Positions 6,364 to 52,690 of a DNA stretch of 58,743 bases are shown one piece after another. The position numbers were made by a program, and so were the translations under genes. The notes beneath the pieces are model-generated. The model saw only the letters and a program-made list of their open reading frames with translations. It ran no database searches and was not told where the DNA came from. Origin of the DNA: an uncultured Candidatus Saccharibacteria bacterium (lineage in GTDB: Bacteria > Patescibacteriota > Minisyncoccia > UBA6257 > GWB1-50-10); assembly GCA_964565515.1 (NCBI GenBank), contig CAZMFA010000002.1, positions 1 to 58,743 of the forward strand, read 5' to 3'. How positions within the stretch are numbered: the first letter of the stretch is position 1; each line of letters opens with the position of its first letter.

Positions 6364-6367
6364 TAAA

Positions 6368-6445
6368 CCCCGTTAGATTCCTCCTTGTTTGTCGCGGAAA
6401 TCTAAGACGACAGGAAGTCAGCTTTAAAAAGGGGATTTAACGGGG
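6368..6445 (+). repeat. palindrome-bounded element, short degenerate copy (E1)
   Basis: Arms CCCCGTTAGATTCC (6368-6381) and GGGGATTTAACGGGG (6431-6445) pair over 14 bp. Both non-Watson-Crick positions are G:U in the + strand RNA. Confidence 0.6.
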
Positions 6446-6458
6446 TAAAATAAAAGAA

Positions 6459-7115
6459 ATGGCCCAAACAAGCCTCCCAACGCAAAATTTAGTGGAGATC
6501 AAGAAGATCAAGGATGGCGTCGTCTATCTCAAGGACGGCGGCTTGGTGCAAATTATCATGGTGAACGGCATCAACTTCGACCTCAAGTCGGAAGAGGAAC
6601 AAAACGCCATCATCGGCACCTTCCAAAAATTCCTCAATTCTCTCGACTTCAGGACGCAATTCTTCATCCACTCCCGGAAGGTCAATATTCAAAAATACAT
6701 CGAGAACATCAGCGAGCGGAAAAAGAACGAAACAAACGAGCTTCTCAAGATACAGATTGATGAGTACTTGAGCTTTATAAAATCGTTCGTCGAAGAAAAT
6801 GCGATCATCAGCAAAAACTTCTTCATTGCCGTCCCGTATAATCCGACGCCTGAAACGGCTGCAACGACATCGGGACTTTTCAGTATGCTGAAGTTTGGGA
6901 AACGTGCGCCGACCCCTGCAGAAAACCAAGCGGCCGGCGTCAAGATTCAAGAGAACCTCGAGCAGTTGAAGAACCGGGTCGAGGGCATCATCGCCGGTCT
7001 CGAGCAGTTGGATCTTCGCGCAACGCCCCTGGAAGACGACGAACTCACCGAACTATTTTATAATCTCTACAATCCACAATTGACCGAGAAAAAGGATGTC
7101 AACATACCATCATGA
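6459..7115 (+). CDS. VirB4 N-terminal-domain-like protein (apparent 5' part of a split virB4)
   Basis: 218-aa ORF. The pattern VNGINFDLKSEEEQNAIIGTFQKFLNSLDFRTQFFI resembles the N-terminal domain of Gram-positive VirB4 homologues, recalled from memory and needing an HMM check. Its TGA stop lies inside the ATGAAT start of element E2. Confidence 0.45.
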   Translation: MAQTSLPTQNLVEIKKIKDGVVYLKDGGLVQIIMVNGINFDLKSEEEQNAIIGTFQKFLNSLDFRTQFFIHSRKVNIQKYIENISERKKNETNELLKIQIDEYLSFIKSFVEENAIISKNFFIAVPYNPTPETAATTSGLFSMLKFGKRAPTPAENQAAGVKIQENLEQLKNRVEGIIAGLEQLDLRATPLEDDELTELFYNLYNPQLTEKKDVNIPS

Positions 7116-7233
7116 ATCCTGTTAGAAATCGCGTACGCACATCGAAGGAAATACATGAATAAAAAATCAATCAAAGGGGTTAAAAACAATGTACGCAAAG
7201 CGCGGGGCGCGTATGCGTACTATTTCTAACGGG
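7112..7233 (+). repeat. palindrome-bounded element, family-2 copy (E2)
   Basis: Starts ATGAATCCTGTTAGAAATCGCGTACGC and ends GCGTACTATTTCTAACGGG. It is homologous end to end with 41951-42077 on the minus strand. It contains a 16-codon ORF (7112-7162, MNPVRNRVRTSKEIHE). ATG 7234 follows the 3' arm directly. Confidence 0.7.
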
Positions 7234-9003
7234 ATGAAGGTCCAAATACCAAAAGCATACAAGCCGGGGGAAGAAGATCTTTTCAACATCGTCGCCCCGT
7301 CGGGCGTGGAGGTAAACTCCAATTACTTGAAGGTTGGCGATTATTTCGCCAAAACCTTCTTCATTTTTACCTACCCGCGGTACATCTCGACGGGATGGTT
7401 TTCGCCGATCATCAACCTGCCGACCATGATGGATATTTCCATATTCGTTCACCCCATGGACACAGCCCTCGCCTTGAGGAACTTAAGAAAAAAGGTGACT
7501 CAAGTCGAAGCCGAAATAGGAGAAAAAGAAGAAAAGGGGATTGTACGCGACCCCGTCCTTGAAACCGCCTACCAAGATATCGAAAGCCTACGGGATGCGC
7601 TCCAGCAGGCCCGAGAACGGCTTTTCGAGGTCGGGGTTTACATCACCATTTACGCTTCGAGCCTCGAGGAACTTGCAAAAACGGAGGAAACCGTGACCAA
7701 TGCCATGGAAAGCCGGCTCGTGTACGTAAAGCCCGCCCTCTTCAGGCAATTAGACGGCTTCAATTCGGTCCTTCCCATCGCCAAGGACGTACTTGCCGTC
7801 CGAACCCCCCTGAACAGCGGACCGGCATCCTCGATCTTTCCCTTCACTTCCGCCGACCTTACCTCCGAAAACGGCATCCTTTACGGGATCAATATGCAGA
7901 ACAACACGCTCATCATTTTCGACCGTTTTTCGCTCGAGAACGCCAACATGGTCGTCTTCGCCAAATCGGGTTCCGGCAAATCATATGCCACAAAACTTCA
8001 AATACTCCGATCGCTTATGATGGGGACCGACGTCATCGTGATCGATCCGGAAAATGAATATCAAAACCTCGCCGATTCCATCGGGGGAAGTTATTTTAAA
8101 ATCTCGCTCACCTCAAAAAACCACGTCAATCCCTTCGACATCCCCGTCATCCCCGAGGGGGAGGAACCGGCCGACGTCTTTAAGTCGCACATCTTGAACC
8201 TCACCGGCCTCGTAAAACTGATGTTGGGAACCATAACGCCGGAAGAAGAAGCACTCCTCGACCGCGCGATCACCGAAACTTATACATCCCGTGATATCAC
8301 CGCGGAAAACTTCGGAACCTTGAAGGAAATGAATCCTCCGCTCCTCGAAGATCTCCAAACCATCCTTCGGAATACCGAAGGGGGAGCGGGAATCGCGGAG
8401 CGGTTGGATAAATACACCCACGGATCGTATTCCGGCTTCACCAATGCCCCAACCAACGTTGACATCAAAAATCGGCTCATTGTCTTTTCAATCCGCGACC
8501 TCGAGGAAGAGCTCCGGCCGATCGCCATGTACATCGTTTTGAACTTCGTTTGGAATCTCGTGCGCTCAGAACTCAAGCAGCGGCTTCTCGTGATCGACGA
8601 GGCGTGGTGGATGATGAAATACAAGGATAGCGCTTCGTTCTTGTTCGGCCTTGTGAAGCGTGCTCGGAAATACTACCTCGGCGTTACGACCATCACCCAA
8701 GACGTGGACGACTTTCTCCGCTCCGAATACGGCCGACCGATCGTCACGAACTCCGCCATGCAACTTCTCCTTAAACAATCGCCGTCAAGCATCGATTCAT
8801 TGAAAAAAGCGTTCAACTTGACTGATGGAGAATCGGCATTGCTCCTCGAGTCGGCCGTCGGCGAAGGGCTGCTCTTTGCCGGTTTGAAACATGCTGCAAT
8901 CCGCATCATCGCGTCGTATACCGAGGATCAAATCGTCACGACAAATCCCGAACAAATCCTCGAAACAAAGGGCATTAAAGAAGAAAACAATGGATCCCAT
9001 TAG
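7234..9003 (+). CDS. virB4: VirB4-family type IV secretion ATPase (C-terminal ~590 aa)
   Basis: Walker A FAKSGSGKSYATK, Walker B RLLVIDEAWWMM, and the motif YPRYISTGWFSPII typical of VirB4/TraC-like proteins. ATG 7234 is preferred over 7189 because the 15 upstream codons are element-encoded. Confidence 0.8.
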   Translation: MKVQIPKAYKPGEEDLFNIVAPSGVEVNSNYLKVGDYFAKTFFIFTYPRYISTGWFSPIINLPTMMDISIFVHPMDTALALRNLRKKVTQVEAEIGEKEEKGIVRDPVLETAYQDIESLRDALQQARERLFEVGVYITIYASSLEELAKTEETVTNAMESRLVYVKPALFRQLDGFNSVLPIAKDVLAVRTPLNSGPASSIFPFTSADLTSENGILYGINMQNNTLIIFDRFSLENANMVVFAKSGSGKSYATKLQILRSLMMGTDVIVIDPENEYQNLADSIGGSYFKISLTSKNHVNPFDIPVIPEGEEPADVFKSHILNLTGLVKLMLGTITPEEEALLDRAITETYTSRDITAENFGTLKEMNPPLLEDLQTILRNTEGGAGIAERLDKYTHGSYSGFTNAPTNVDIKNRLIVFSIRDLEEELRPIAMYIVLNFVWNLVRSELKQRLLVIDEAWWMMKYKDSASFLFGLVKRARKYYLGVTTITQDVDDFLRSEYGRPIVTNSAMQLLLKQSPSSIDSLKKAFNLTDGESALLLESAVGEGLLFAGLKHAAIRIIASYTEDQIVTTNPEQILETKGIKEENNGSH

Positions 9004-9101
9004 AAACCACAAACTTATAAAAAACACAATCGCTCGCAAAGTCGAATTAACCAAGTTTCATAGGCAATCGCTTATGAAAAAGGTATTTTGTTTCTAAAGG
9101 G
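8990..9101 (+). repeat. palindrome-bounded element, family-1 copy A, with 35-codon mini-ORF 8990-9097
   Basis: Arms CCCATTAGAAAC (8996-9007) and GTTTCTAAAGGG (9090-9101). Mini-ORF: MDPIRNHKLIKNTIARKVELTKFHRQSLMKKVFCF. The virB4 stop TAG (9001-9003) lies inside the 5' arm, and ATG 9102 abuts the 3' arm. Confidence 0.7.
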
Positions 9102-9560
9102 ATGGATGAAGATTTAAAGCCATTAAAGGAGTTCGACGCGAAGGGGCTTGACGAAACCGCAAAGAACATCGCGGGCGACGCCCCGAAGATCGGCTGGGGA
9201 GAGATCTTCCTCATAACGCCGCTTCTCTTGTTTGTTGATTTTGTGGAACTCATGGCCGGGCTCCTTGAATTCGTGCCGATTGCCGGACAAGCGATACTCC
9301 TTCCCCTTGCACTCATTTGTTCCGTAGTCGGACTCCTTATCACCGGCGGCGTCCAAGTTTATCTTTTTTTCAAACACATCAAAAACTATACCTTTCTTCT
9401 TGTCGGCATCGCCGATTCGGCCCCGTTCCTAAGCGACTTGCCGCTTCGGACCGCGGGCTGGCTCGTGACTGTTTTCATGACCAATAATAAGAAGGTTTCT
9501 CAAATAACCTCCCGAATTCCGGGCGGGAAGATCGCCAAAGCTCTAAGTGAATTGCCATGA
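9102..9560 (+). CDS. small integral membrane protein
   Basis: 152-aa ORF with about 3 hydrophobic helices; 4-nt overlap with the next ORF. Confidence 0.5.
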   Translation: MDEDLKPLKEFDAKGLDETAKNIAGDAPKIGWGEIFLITPLLLFVDFVELMAGLLEFVPIAGQAILLPLALICSVVGLLITGGVQVYLFFKHIKNYTFLLVGIADSAPFLSDLPLRTAGWLVTVFMTNNKKVSQITSRIPGGKIAKALSELP

Positions 9561-10246
9561 ATGCCATAAAAACAACTCTTGTCGCTCTTGCCGTCCTCGT
9601 TGTTGCGGCCGGAACGGCGGCAAAAATAAACGCTCAAGCGACGGGGAACAATTACTCGGCGATTATCACCTGGAGAGCGAACAACTATCATCCTTCCGAT
9701 TTCTTAGGAAAGGCGCTCCCGACCAACGGTACGACTGTTTCGTTGTCCGTCATCGTCCTCAATAATCAAAAGGTTCAAGACTCGTTGAGTCTGCCGATCC
9801 TTTGGTATGTGGATGGAAATTTTATGAACGGCGGCGTCGGGCAATCTCGAACGAGTTTTACCGTTACGAAAACTGCGGGTGATTCTCATGTCGTAAGCGT
9901 GCAAATAGGGGTGGGGGGGCAGACCATTTCTGCATCAACGAGAATCCCCGTGACAAGCTATAAAGCTGTCATAAACGCTCCTTATCCGGCTCAAACCGTG
10001 AACCAAAATTCGACGGCCAACCTCGAAATAATTCCTTACTTCTTCAATGTCACCTCGTTCAACGATTTCCTCTTTTCTTGGAACGTCAACAACCTCCAAA
10101 ACGTGACGAGTACCACCGACAACACCCTAGCGCTCCAAGTCGGGCAAGTCGGTACGGCGCAAAACATTTCTATCAATGCTTCGGTAGAAAACTCGGCGAA
10201 TGCGTTCGAATTCGCCTACGGGAAAATAAACCTCTATGTCCAATAA
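9557..10246 (+). CDS. secreted hypothetical protein
   Basis: 229-aa ORF with signal peptide MNAIKTTLVALAVLVVAAGTAAKINAQA. Confidence 0.5.
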   Translation: MNAIKTTLVALAVLVVAAGTAAKINAQATGNNYSAIITWRANNYHPSDFLGKALPTNGTTVSLSVIVLNNQKVQDSLSLPILWYVDGNFMNGGVGQSRTSFTVTKTAGDSHVVSVQIGVGGQTISASTRIPVTSYKAVINAPYPAQTVNQNSTANLEIIPYFFNVTSFNDFLFSWNVNNLQNVTSTTDNTLALQVGQVGTAQNISINASVENSANAFEFAYGKINLYVQ

Positions 10247-31168: not shown

Positions 31169-31280
31169 ATGAATCCCATGAGAAACCGTAAACTTATAAA
31201 AAAGATGATTATTCAAGAAGTCAAATTAACCGCGCATTATAGGCAGCTGCTTATAAAAAAGGCGCCTCGTTTCTAATGGG
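31169..31280 (+). repeat. palindrome-bounded element, family-1 copy B, with 35-codon mini-ORF 31169-31276
   Basis: Arms CCCATGAGAAAC (31175-31186) and GTTTCTAATGGG (31269-31280). Mini-ORF: MNPMRNRKLIKKMIIQEVKLTAHYRQLLIKKAPRF. ATG 31281 abuts the 3' arm. Confidence 0.7.
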
Positions 31281-32636
31281 ATGAAACTTACTTTTTGCGG
31301 TGGAGCCAAAATCGTCACGGGTTCCAACTATCTTTTGGAATCGGGCGACACGAAGATTCTCATCGATTGCGGATTGAATCAAGGCGAAAGTTTTTGCGAG
31401 AATTTGAATTACGAGCCGTTTCCTTACGACCCCCGGGAAGTGCAAGCGGTCTTCGTGACGCATGCCCACATCGATCACATCGGCCGCCTTCCCAAGCTCG
31501 TGAAGGACGGTTTCCGCGGCGCGATCCATTCGACGGGGCCTACCAAGGATTTCGCCGCTCCAATGCTTGAGGATACGGCACATTTATTCGGCGAAGAAGT
31601 GATGAAAAAGGGCCGCGAGCCGCTTTATGGCGATGGTGATATTGAGCGAACACTCGCCCTGTGGCAAAGTTTCGCTTATCACGAGACGGTCGAAGTCGGA
31701 CCGTTTTCGGTGGAATTTTTCAACGCAGGTCATATCCTGGGATCGTCAACGCTCGTCGTGTCCGTCGAAGGGGGAAAAATCGTCTTTTCCGGCGACCTCG
31801 GGAATAGTCCATCACCCCTCATTACGGGGACGGAATATCCGACGGACGTCGATTATGCGCTCGTGGAGTCCGCTTACGGCGACCGGATCCACGAGGATTT
31901 GGACAAGCGGAAGGAAATGCTGAAGGAAAATGTCCAAGAGGCCGTTCGCGCGGGAGGTGTCCTTATGATCCCGGCTTTTGCTCTCGAACGGACCCAAGAA
32001 ATGCTCTTCGAGTTGAATAATATGGTTGAGGGGAAGGAAATTCCCGCCGTGCCGGTTTTTGTCGACAGTCCTCTCGCAATCAAGCTTACGGATGTCTATC
32101 GGAAATATTCCCGCAACCCCCTGTATTTCAACAAGGGCACCGTCGATTTGGTGCGGTCCGGCGAAGATATTTTCAATTTCCCCGGCCTTACGATGACGCT
32201 TACGAAAGAAGAGTCAAAAAAGATCAATGATGTCCCGCCGCCCAAGATTGTTATTGCCGGCGCCGGGATGTCGAACGGCGGAAGGATCTTGCATCACGAG
32301 GTTCGTTATCTCTCCGATCCGCGGAGTACGCTTCTTGTTGTCGGCTACCAATCGGTCAATTCGCTGGGGCGGAAGCTTTTGGACGGAGAACGCCGGGTCG
32401 AGATCCTCGGCCAAGTCGTCGAAGTGAAGGCGAAAATCCTTTCAATCAGCGGCTATTCGGCCCACGCCGACCAAAATCAGCTGCTTGATTGGGTTTCTCG
32501 CTTGGGGAAGGGCGTGAAGAAGATCTTCGTGGTCCAGGGCGACGGCAACGCTTCCGATATTCTTGCGGAAAAGATCAGAGAAAGATTCTCCCTTGAGGCC
32601 CTCGCTCCTTCACGGAGGGATTCGGTACTGTTATAA
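31281..32636 (+). CDS. metallo-beta-lactamase / beta-CASP family RNA-metabolising hydrolase
   Basis: HAHIDHIGRLP motif; 451 aa; C-terminal SGYSAHAD, typical of beta-CASP proteins. Confidence 0.75.
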   Translation: MKLTFCGGAKIVTGSNYLLESGDTKILIDCGLNQGESFCENLNYEPFPYDPREVQAVFVTHAHIDHIGRLPKLVKDGFRGAIHSTGPTKDFAAPMLEDTAHLFGEEVMKKGREPLYGDGDIERTLALWQSFAYHETVEVGPFSVEFFNAGHILGSSTLVVSVEGGKIVFSGDLGNSPSPLITGTEYPTDVDYALVESAYGDRIHEDLDKRKEMLKENVQEAVRAGGVLMIPAFALERTQEMLFELNNMVEGKEIPAVPVFVDSPLAIKLTDVYRKYSRNPLYFNKGTVDLVRSGEDIFNFPGLTMTLTKEESKKINDVPPPKIVIAGAGMSNGGRILHHEVRYLSDPRSTLLVVGYQSVNSLGRKLLDGERRVEILGQVVEVKAKILSISGYSAHADQNQLLDWVSRLGKGVKKIFVVQGDGNASDILAEKIRERFSLEALAPSRRDSVLL

Positions 32637-41780: not shown

Positions 41781-41950
41781 CAGTTATTGATAAGTTTTTG
41801 TATGTCGACGTTTCCTAATGTTCGGGCGTTCTTTTTCCGTTTGATTTGCACCGTTCTTTTGTTCGCTCGCGAGTGACCCAAAGCCATTGCCCGGCGGAGC
41901 ACCTTGCCTGACTTCGTTATTTTTATTCTTTTTGACACGCTTTTCCTCAT
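41780..41950 (-). CDS. rpmI: 50S ribosomal protein L35
   Basis: MRKSVSKRIKITKSGKVLRR. The start at 41950 abuts the element arm; the track's 7-codon extension is element-encoded. Confidence 0.85.
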   Translation of the reverse strand: MRKSVSKRIKITKSGKVLRRAMALGHSRANKRTVQIKRKKNARTLGNVDIQKLINN

Positions 41951-42077
41951 TCCGTTAGAAATAGTACGCACACACGGAGTGCGTTTTGCGCCTATTGTTT
42001 TTAACCTTTTTCATTGATTGTTTTTTCATAAGTTTATTTTCTTTTCATGGGCGTATGCGATTTCTAACGGGATTCAT
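41951..42077 (-). repeat. palindrome-bounded element, family-2 copy (E6)
   Basis: Minus strand reads ATGAATCCCGTTAGAAATCGCATACGC ... GCGTACTATTTCTAACGGA. It is homologous to 7112-7233. It contains a 10-codon ORF, MNPVRNRIRP (42077-42045). Confidence 0.7.
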
Positions 42078-52577: not shown

Positions 52578-52690
52578 CCCCGTTAGAAATGTGCTGGAGG
52601 AGGGACTTGAACCCTCACGTCCTTGCGGACACTAGCTCCTGAAGCTAGCCTGTCTGCCAATTTCAGCACTCCAGCATATTTCTAACGGGG
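52578..52690 (-). repeat. palindrome arms enclosing tRNA-Leu(CAG) (E7)
   Basis: CCCCGTTAGAAAT (52578-52590) and ATTTCTAACGGGG (52678-52690) are perfect 13-nt complements that extend the tRNA acceptor stem. Confidence 0.7.
52592..52675 (-). tRNA. tRNA-Leu(CAG)
   Basis: 84-nt class II tRNA: acceptor GCTGGAG/CTCCAGC, anticodon arm CTAGC-TTCAGGA-GCTAG, variable arm GTCCGCAAGGAC, T-arm GAGGG-TTCAAGT-CCCTC. Confidence 0.85.

Follow-up and report, generated by a model that had tools for sequence, protein, structure and literature searches.

A 58,743-nt contig from an uncultured Candidatus Saccharibacteria bacterium (CAZMFA010000002.1, positions 1 to 58,743; hereafter the window) carries eight loci that share the inverted-repeat stem CCCGTTAGAAA/TTTCTAACGGG, a 13-bp helix in which pairing is preserved from copy to copy. 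With a probability of about 0.68, we interpret this stem as the hairpin-forming terminal inverted repeats that bound a family of tiny mobile DNA elements landing on gene starts. A preliminary description of the window, made from its sequence alone, had attributed the structure-preserving substitutions in the stem to selection on a sense-strand RNA duplex; the pairing constraint withstood statistical analysis, but an RNA function of these substitutions in the host transcript is not supported. An invariant core together with covarying flanking pairs is best explained by recognition of a folded DNA hairpin, and the compensatory changes seen here are a better fit to mobile DNA ends that must fold, a warning for covariation-based RNA discovery in repeat-rich genomes.

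Distribution and covariation of the stem

The elements have the layout Y-CCCGTTAGA-NNN ... NNN-TCTAACGGG-R, in which both ends pair together to give the 13-bp helix. This extends the stem by one outer Y:R pair (T or C before CCC, A or G after GGG) past the limit originally drawn. An exact search for two 11-mers lying 80-110 bases apart, using one genome per species, returned at least 120 loci with both 11-mers. The host labels, taken from metagenome-assembled genomes (MAGs), cover many classes of Patescibacteria, Omnitrophota, Deltaproteobacteria, Syntrophaceae, Thermodesulfobacteriota, Planctomycetia, Phycisphaerae, Nitrospirae, Bdellovibrionales and others, and only a handful of copies were found on viral contigs. 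The flank pattern is constant across the loci and the loop sequences are mutually unrelated. A relaxed search of 1.23 Mb of fetched DNA recovered 269 arm pairs, compared with 9 in reversed-sequence controls, and clustering of the 269 left 249 non-redundant elements. Their loops hold as little as 3 nt, or a mini-ORF (open reading frame), a GC-rich hairpin, a tRNA or the gene for an 86-residue GIY-YIG nuclease. Bare hairpins of 27-31 nt with loops of 3-7 nt occur, and these and solo copies are plentiful, in addition to the arms that flank nuclease genes. A search of the window for one arm, allowing up to two mismatches, gave 21 matches against 23 expected, which is not above chance, so that only paired arms are informative. 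No relevant paper on the motif was found in the literature searched.

Among the 249 elements, positions 1-9 of the helix hardly depart from CCCGTTAGA/TCTAACGGG (identity of at least 94% across phyla), and the variation is concentrated in the pairs that flank this core. Position -1 is T:A in 119 elements and C:G in 116; position 10 is A:T (163), G:C (75), T:A (6) or C:G (2); position 11 is A:T (217), G:C (14), T:A (5) or C:G (4); and position 12 is T:A (141), C:G (46), A:T (21) or G:C (7). Each of these four positions therefore varies among two to four standard pair types, with 1-14% of cells unpaired. From position 13 onward there is no in-register pairing, and the ungapped extension of the stem ends there because a bulge follows. 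Changes inside the core, in compensated form, are rare, and two elements serve as examples. In one locus (L092) the arms read CCTGTTAGAAA...TTTCTAACAGG. The other is a copy on an IMG/VR contig (L209 5864-5926), with arms ACCGTTAGAGA...TCTCTAACGGT, an A:T pair at position 1 and the target duplication TCAA.

Pairing statistics were computed on 135 elements that had not been chosen for perfect arms (120 distinct sequences), with 500 shuffles. Paired cells made up 97.0% of the total, compared with 87.9% after shuffling, and 176 cells were changed on both sides where 55 were expected, with double changes in 8 pairs; none of the 500 shuffles reached the observed value for pairing or for double changes. 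When the partner was shifted by 1-3 columns, pairing fell to 37-51%. These figures indicate that pairing, or strict inverted symmetry, is maintained. Generic detection of further stems inside the elements was uninformative, as spurious stems dominate (533 transversion mismatches).

Insertion sites and nuclease-encoding copies

Perfect 4-bp target duplications flank 139 of the 249 elements, with 35 expected from shuffled flanks, and six of the eight copies in the window; TGAA and similar 4-mers are preferred. Very often the element has inserted on ATGAA at the beginning of a gene, and in the window a start codon is overlapped by the duplicated 4-mer at five of the eight loci. The resulting layout is A-TGAA-[T CCC...GGG A]-TGAA, in which the host ATG is retained on the left and the right-hand start codon is rebuilt from the last base of the element (A or G) and the duplicated TG. 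The target preference also takes in promoter boxes, as indicated by copies in TTGAC(A) with a TTGA duplication (L049 5050-5141, L066 5439-5540, L164 and the window copy at 25452), which leave one intact -35-like box on one side.

Unoccupied sites were found in a relative with the same gene order as the window (L201, 84% PolA identity). It is empty at the tsaE/polA junction (AAATGAAGG; window 23826), the T2SSE-ruvB spacer (ATGTCAACCCTCG; window 25452) and the Mur ligase/beta-CASP junction (GAAATGAAACTC; window 31174), and at each empty site the 4-mer present twice around the window element occurs once. L203, a relative further removed (68% PolA identity), carries elements at the same three sites, at 2308-2423, 8300-8375 and 9896-10000 (corresponding to window 31174, 25452 and 23826, respectively). 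At the Mur ligase/beta-CASP site, the element in L203 belongs to family 2 and that in the window to the mini-ORF family, which implies either independent hits or replacement of an element. Both copies have an unusual T>G change at position 6 of the left arm (window 31180), and this hints at replacement of the cargo within a resident element. The preliminary description had judged that the stem does not look like a DNA-level recombination site, a view contradicted by the 4-bp duplications, by the three empty sites and by the occurrence of nuclease-encoding copies with the same ends.

These longer copies, of 272-279 bp (about 277 bp), encode a GIY-YIG protein of 84-86 residues. In the fetched loci, three such copies (276-279 bp) have the arms CCCGTTAGAGA/TCTCTAACGGG and an ORF of 84-86 residues. 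The sole Pfam match of the encoded protein is to the GIY-YIG catalytic domain (PF01541; E = 1e-16 to 5e-14); in NCBIfam there is a weak match, below threshold, to endonucleases of group I introns, and among solved structures the UPF0213 proteins 1zg2 (E = 3e-8) and 1ywl come closest. Of the 600 candidate stretches listed by a protein-based metagenome scan, at least 385 were confirmed as relatives of the nuclease, and the best 80 of these loci have the same ends and the same flank pattern. The nuclease ORF reads in frame from the duplicated host ATG and ends within the duplicated TGAA, whose TGA serves as its stop codon and overlaps the rebuilt start codon; the nuclease gene is translationally coupled to the host gene. 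At host start codons, 41 nuclease-encoding copies point the same way as the host gene and none points the opposite way. The non-coding family 2 has the right end of the nuclease copies, TCCTAT(C/T)TCTAACGGG. No nuclease-coding copy is present in the window, and no paper describing start-codon GIY-YIG elements was found in the literature searched.

Small GIY-YIG genes without CCCGTTAGA arms were also observed, and set aside (L001 4454-4651 and L086 5217-5441, also in L011, L107 and L023; 35-40% identical to the nuclease of the elements). Those of L001 and L086 have duplicated tRNA-like segments on both sides, and are probably the product of another type of insertion into tRNA genes.

A mechanism can be proposed in which the nuclease would recognise the nine invariant core base pairs by sequence and would need the ends to be folded as a hairpin, probably on single-stranded DNA, by analogy with Ssn proteins. 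The latter are single-domain GIY-YIG nucleases of about 94 residues, whose genes lie between hairpin repeats (Chenal et al. 2025, PMC11893778), and which bind and cut only single-stranded DNA, not double-stranded DNA or RNA (PMC11893778). If folding is needed, positions -1, 10, 11 and 12 would be free to change only on both sides together. The structure-preserving substitutions may then mark element lineages that are still mobile, or arms that have been corrected against each other in a hairpin intermediate. The loop would carry no recognition, which would explain the near-arbitrary cargo, from a 3-nt loop through mini-ORF, GC-rich hairpin and nuclease gene to a tRNA.

Window copies and the transcript strand

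All eight loci were present where the preliminary description had placed them, and the pairs it cited were borne out by a base-by-base check. The first element (6368..6445; arms 6368-6381 and 6432-6445) has a 49-nt loop, lies in the intergenic region between a PrgI-like gene and ORF 6459-7115, and is flanked by the duplication TAAA (6364-6367 and 6446-6449). Two of its pairs, 6376/6437 and 6379/6434, are G·T. The second (7117..7234, + strand; outer pair T7117:A7234) is a family-2 element at the start codon of a VirB4-like ATPase ORF, with the duplication TGAA (7113-7116 and 7235-7238). Its A7234 is the first base of the rebuilt ATG, the left TGAA retains the overlapping stop codon TGA of the upstream ORF (7113-7115), and the element has a T·G pair at 7120/7231 and a second helix, CGCGTAC/GTATGCG. 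The other family-2 element (41950..42072, - strand) is at the rpmI start codon in the infC/rpmI junction, and its flanks, CTCA and TTCA, match at 3/4 positions.

Three copies belong to the mini-ORF family. The one at the start of ORF 9102-9560 (8995..9102, + strand) has the duplication TGGA (8991-8994 and 9103-9106) and an A:A mismatch at 8999/9098. That in the tsaE/polA junction, at the polA start codon (23826..23933, - strand), has a duplication spelled TTCA on the + strand (23822-23825 and 23934-23937). The third, at the beta-CASP start codon in the Mur ligase/beta-CASP junction (31174..31281, + strand), is flanked by TGAA (31170-31173 and 31282-31285), and has a compensated A-T pair at 31178/31277 and a G:A mismatch at 31180/31275. 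The element with a GC-rich loop (25452..25519) lies in the T2SSE-ruvB intergenic region, within the TTGACA -35 box of a + strand promoter, and has the duplication TTGA (25448-25451 and 25520-25523) and a G-C pair at 25462/25509. At the last locus (52578..52690, - strand) the 13-bp arms surround a complete tRNA-Leu(CAG) gene (52591-52675, - strand); the flanks are CTTG and TGAA, with no target duplication. A second tRNA gene inside the same arms was found in a Bdellovibrionales MAG (L046 5058-5165). An Rfam search of the whole window detected only a tmRNA and three tRNAs at or above the gathering score, and none of the elements matched. In DNA contigs from the source metagenome, the elements at 7117 (window 7111-7238) and 23826 (23938) continue at their ends into other flanks, and the depth over these two elements is 2-3 times the local level, which indicates further copies in the source genome or its community.

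Since G opposite T in one strand is C opposite A in the other, such mismatches can in principle reveal which strand is under selection, and all those cited had been taken for G:U pairs on the host-gene strand. The cited mismatches 6376/6437, 6379/6434, 7120/7231 and 25457/25514 are indeed G opposite T on the + strand, but the list omitted 41951/42071 and 25452/25519, both of which are T·G on that strand. The host genes are on the + strand at 6368, 7117, 8995 and 31174, and on the - strand at 23826 (tsaE, polA), 41950 (infC, rpmI, rplT) and 25452 (ruvB, 24384-25391; T2SSE ATPase, 25753-27429). As ruvB and the T2SSE ATPase gene are both on the - strand, 25457/25514 is C:A on the host strand, as is 25452/25519; 41951/42071 is likewise C:A on its host - strand. 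The tally for the window is therefore three G:U (6376/6437, 6379/6434 and 7120/7231) to three C:A (25457/25514, 25452/25519 and 41951/42071).

Nor did the larger sample of 249 elements, with a count of roughly 25 to 25, give the excess of G:U over C:A by which an RNA helix was to be told apart. Among 117 elements oriented by the host start codon there were 6 G·T and 1 A·C on the sense strand, and this becomes 6:3, a slight G:U excess, when window pair 41951 and the L206/L207 copy are included. Elements oriented by their flanking genes, a rough orientation based on flanking ORFs, gave 19 G·T and 23 A·C, and a strand-symmetric self-alignment of the ends gave 11 G·T and 9 A·C. A second helix in family 2 (including window copies 7117 and 41950) gave opposite answers according to the register chosen. 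Register a (CGCGGAC/GTCCGCG, with a 4-nt bulge) has 13 G·T and 1 A·C, and register b (GGACGC/GCGTCC) has 3 G·T and 8 A·C; register b is the better paired of the two (93% vs 88%) and is the one picked by RNAalifold. The right end of family 2 (window 7130-7138 / 7210-7222) contains a tandem repeat, GTCCGC-GTCCT, and covarying variants of it, which creates two mutually exclusive registers, both of them covarying among subfamilies. The two cancel out, leaving no robust transcript-strand signal.

Predicted folding energies of the host strand and the other strand (kcal/mol) were -29.2 vs -22.5 for the element at 6368, -35.3 vs -33.8 (7117), -26.9 vs -27.4 (8995), -32.0 vs -34.1 (23826), -31.4 vs -32.6 (25452), -26.5 vs -23.5 (31174), -29.4 vs -32.8 (41950) and -61.5 vs -65.1 (52578), and were tallied as an even split, with four loci favouring the host strand and four the opposite one. 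Averaged over 80 oriented elements, the fold of the sense strand is more stable by 1.1 kcal/mol (split 45:33, p = 0.053), and the predicted G:U pairs number 238 in sense and 215 in antisense, a difference that is not significant. In the metatranscriptomes of the window's own study no contig was found on the window, and in groundwater metatranscriptomes none was found on L142; for L130, a look for RNA runs found none listed. A specific transcript-strand signal in the stem thus has no robust support, and a secondary RNA role in the mRNA is possible.

Several results weigh against reading the stem as mobile DNA ends. One is the start-codon count of 6:1, or 6:3 with the two added cases, and another is the 13:1 of register a. 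Among mid-length copies, stem mismatches are fewer at start codons (4/182) than elsewhere (21/286; p = 0.02), a comparison confounded by chance hits in the non-start-codon group. The polA-site copies of the window and L203 are collinear and 73% identical (flanking polA DNA, 74.5%), and their loops differ at 28 of 82 positions and their arms at 2 of 26, these two forming one compensated pair (p = 0.002). Orthology of the two copies would imply in-place selection on the arms, which selection for mobility does not predict, and would argue for a host-level function, possibly in RNA. However, L201 is empty at the polA site, so that two separate insertions by diverged members of the family are no less likely. 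The proposed mechanism has difficulties of its own: the nuclease alone does not explain integration or the 4-bp duplication, its action on single-stranded DNA is suggested by likeness to the Ssn proteins only, and each repeat flanking an Ssn gene forms its own hairpin, whereas here both ends pair across the cargo.

Some of these same results favour an alternative in which the helix acts in the host mRNA, where the stem would loop the insert out and bring the duplicated and rebuilt start codons side by side, or would serve as a site for RNase III or other processing; such a role could coexist with one in DNA. Elements at start codons are necessarily transcribed in sense, the nuclease copies there all share the direction of the host gene, and the closing pair of the helix includes the base with which the rebuilt start codon begins. 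The slightly better folding of the sense strand, the 6:1 and register a counts, the lower mismatch rate at start codons and the conserved arms at the polA site point in the same direction. We nevertheless regard this explanation as unlikely. The even window tally, the counts of 6:3, 19:23 and 11:9, register b and the divided folding energies all fail to single out the transcript strand, and none of the elements matches an Rfam family. Moreover, a pairing constraint alone would not hold nine base pairs identical across phyla, and the copy at 25452 lies upstream of the promoter's -35 box and has still kept its stem.

The hairpin could also have two jobs, first as a folded single-stranded DNA handle for the 86-residue nuclease, and second as an RNA structure that loops the insert out of the host message and passes ribosomes from the duplicated ATG to the rebuilt start, with the host keeping the stem intact. 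This would explain the contrast between arms and loop at the polA site. We consider it rather improbable; if true, the family would be a kind of translational intron, tolerated inside start codons in several phyla.

It is more doubtful still that the arms are ordinary double-stranded terminal inverted repeats, each bound separately and forming no hairpin, with covariation that stems from a few symmetric master copies. Terminal inverted repeats with a target duplication are the classic signature of cut-and-paste transposition, an invariant core fits a protein-binding site, and kinship among sequences inflates covariation counts. Against this, the four variable positions change among standard pair types in many independent families with few unpaired cells, and separate binding of the ends gives no reason for both to change jointly. 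The rare compensated changes in the core and the existence of bare hairpins with loops of 3-7 nt also speak for folding, and the encoded protein is a small GIY-YIG nuclease and no known transposase. Other candidates were rejected by reasoning: in integron attC sites the core and inverse-core motifs are arranged the other way round, the cores of hammerhead and other small ribozymes are absent, and archaeal bulge-helix-bulge introns do not suit a bacterial lineage and a stem without bulges.

Immediately to the right of the 25452 element, a probable unannotated small RNA gene was observed (25520-25738, + strand). A near-consensus promoter (TTGACA, 17 bases, TAATAT) is followed by a highly structured RNA of ~140 nt and then by a strong terminator hairpin with a T run. 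The predicted fold has an energy of -90.3 kcal/mol (z = -8.2) and the region is conserved in L201; it matches no Rfam family.

Comparison with known systems

The closest known system is that of the Ssn single-strand-specific GIY-YIG nucleases and their NTS/SRM hairpin repeats. Both have a single-domain GIY-YIG nuclease of ~90 residues. Inverted-repeat sequences lie on either side of its gene, each a hairpin by itself in Ssn but one half of a single hairpin here, and the repeat, conserved in sequence and stem, is scattered genome-wide in many gene-less copies. The motif here is CCCGTTAGA and not the NTS sequence, and it is perfectly palindromic, whereas the NTS has non-palindromic flanks that give it direction. 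The authors of the Ssn study remark on the resemblance to insertion sequences, and raise transposition only as a possibility (PMC11893778). The 4-bp duplications, the empty sites of the relative and the preference for start codons seen here have not been reported for Ssn. Should this nuclease, like Ssn, recognise a single-stranded DNA hairpin, the present family would tie the Ssn nucleases to real transposition, and would supply a nuclease whose defined site, about nine bases long, adjoins a stem of variable flanking pairs. The element is unusual in several respects. Its nine-base core is identical in genomes of Patescibacteria, Omnitrophota, Desulfobacterota-type, Planctomycetota, Nitrospirota and other bacteria, its coding form is only ~277 bp, and it inserts on start codons and rebuilds them.

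The elements are best explained as related in kind to the Ssn hairpin-repeat systems and to miniature inverted-repeat transposable elements (MITEs). They resemble MITEs such as the Correia elements of Neisseria, which are non-coding, 100-150 bp long and transcribed together with adjacent genes, and have terminal inverted repeats and target duplications. Correia transcripts fold into hairpins that are cut by RNase III, akin to the RNA role first proposed for the stem. Correia elements differ in having 26-bp repeats and a TA duplication and in being limited to one genus, whereas the core described here is the same across several phyla. The terminal inverted repeats (13 bp, 97% paired), target duplications and empty sites are all features by which MITEs are known. 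However, MITEs stem from insertion sequences with conventional transposases, and no autonomous parent with a transposase of a known insertion-sequence family was found here; the longer relatives, the 277-bp unit from which the present elements derive, encode only the GIY-YIG nuclease.

Further parallels are seen in the repetitive extragenic palindromic (REP) sequences and bacterial interspersed mosaic elements (BIMEs) associated with RAYT proteins, and in IS200/IS605 elements. These too are short palindromic hairpins spread through genomes, in which pairing matters besides sequence. REP sequences are species-specific, and REP-RAYT and IS200/IS605 systems rely on HUH/Y1 tyrosine transposases and produce no duplication of the target, in contrast to the GIY-YIG nuclease and the 4-bp duplication described here. 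Their enzymes recognise folded single-stranded DNA, and it is this same mechanism that we propose for the stem shared by the elements of the window.

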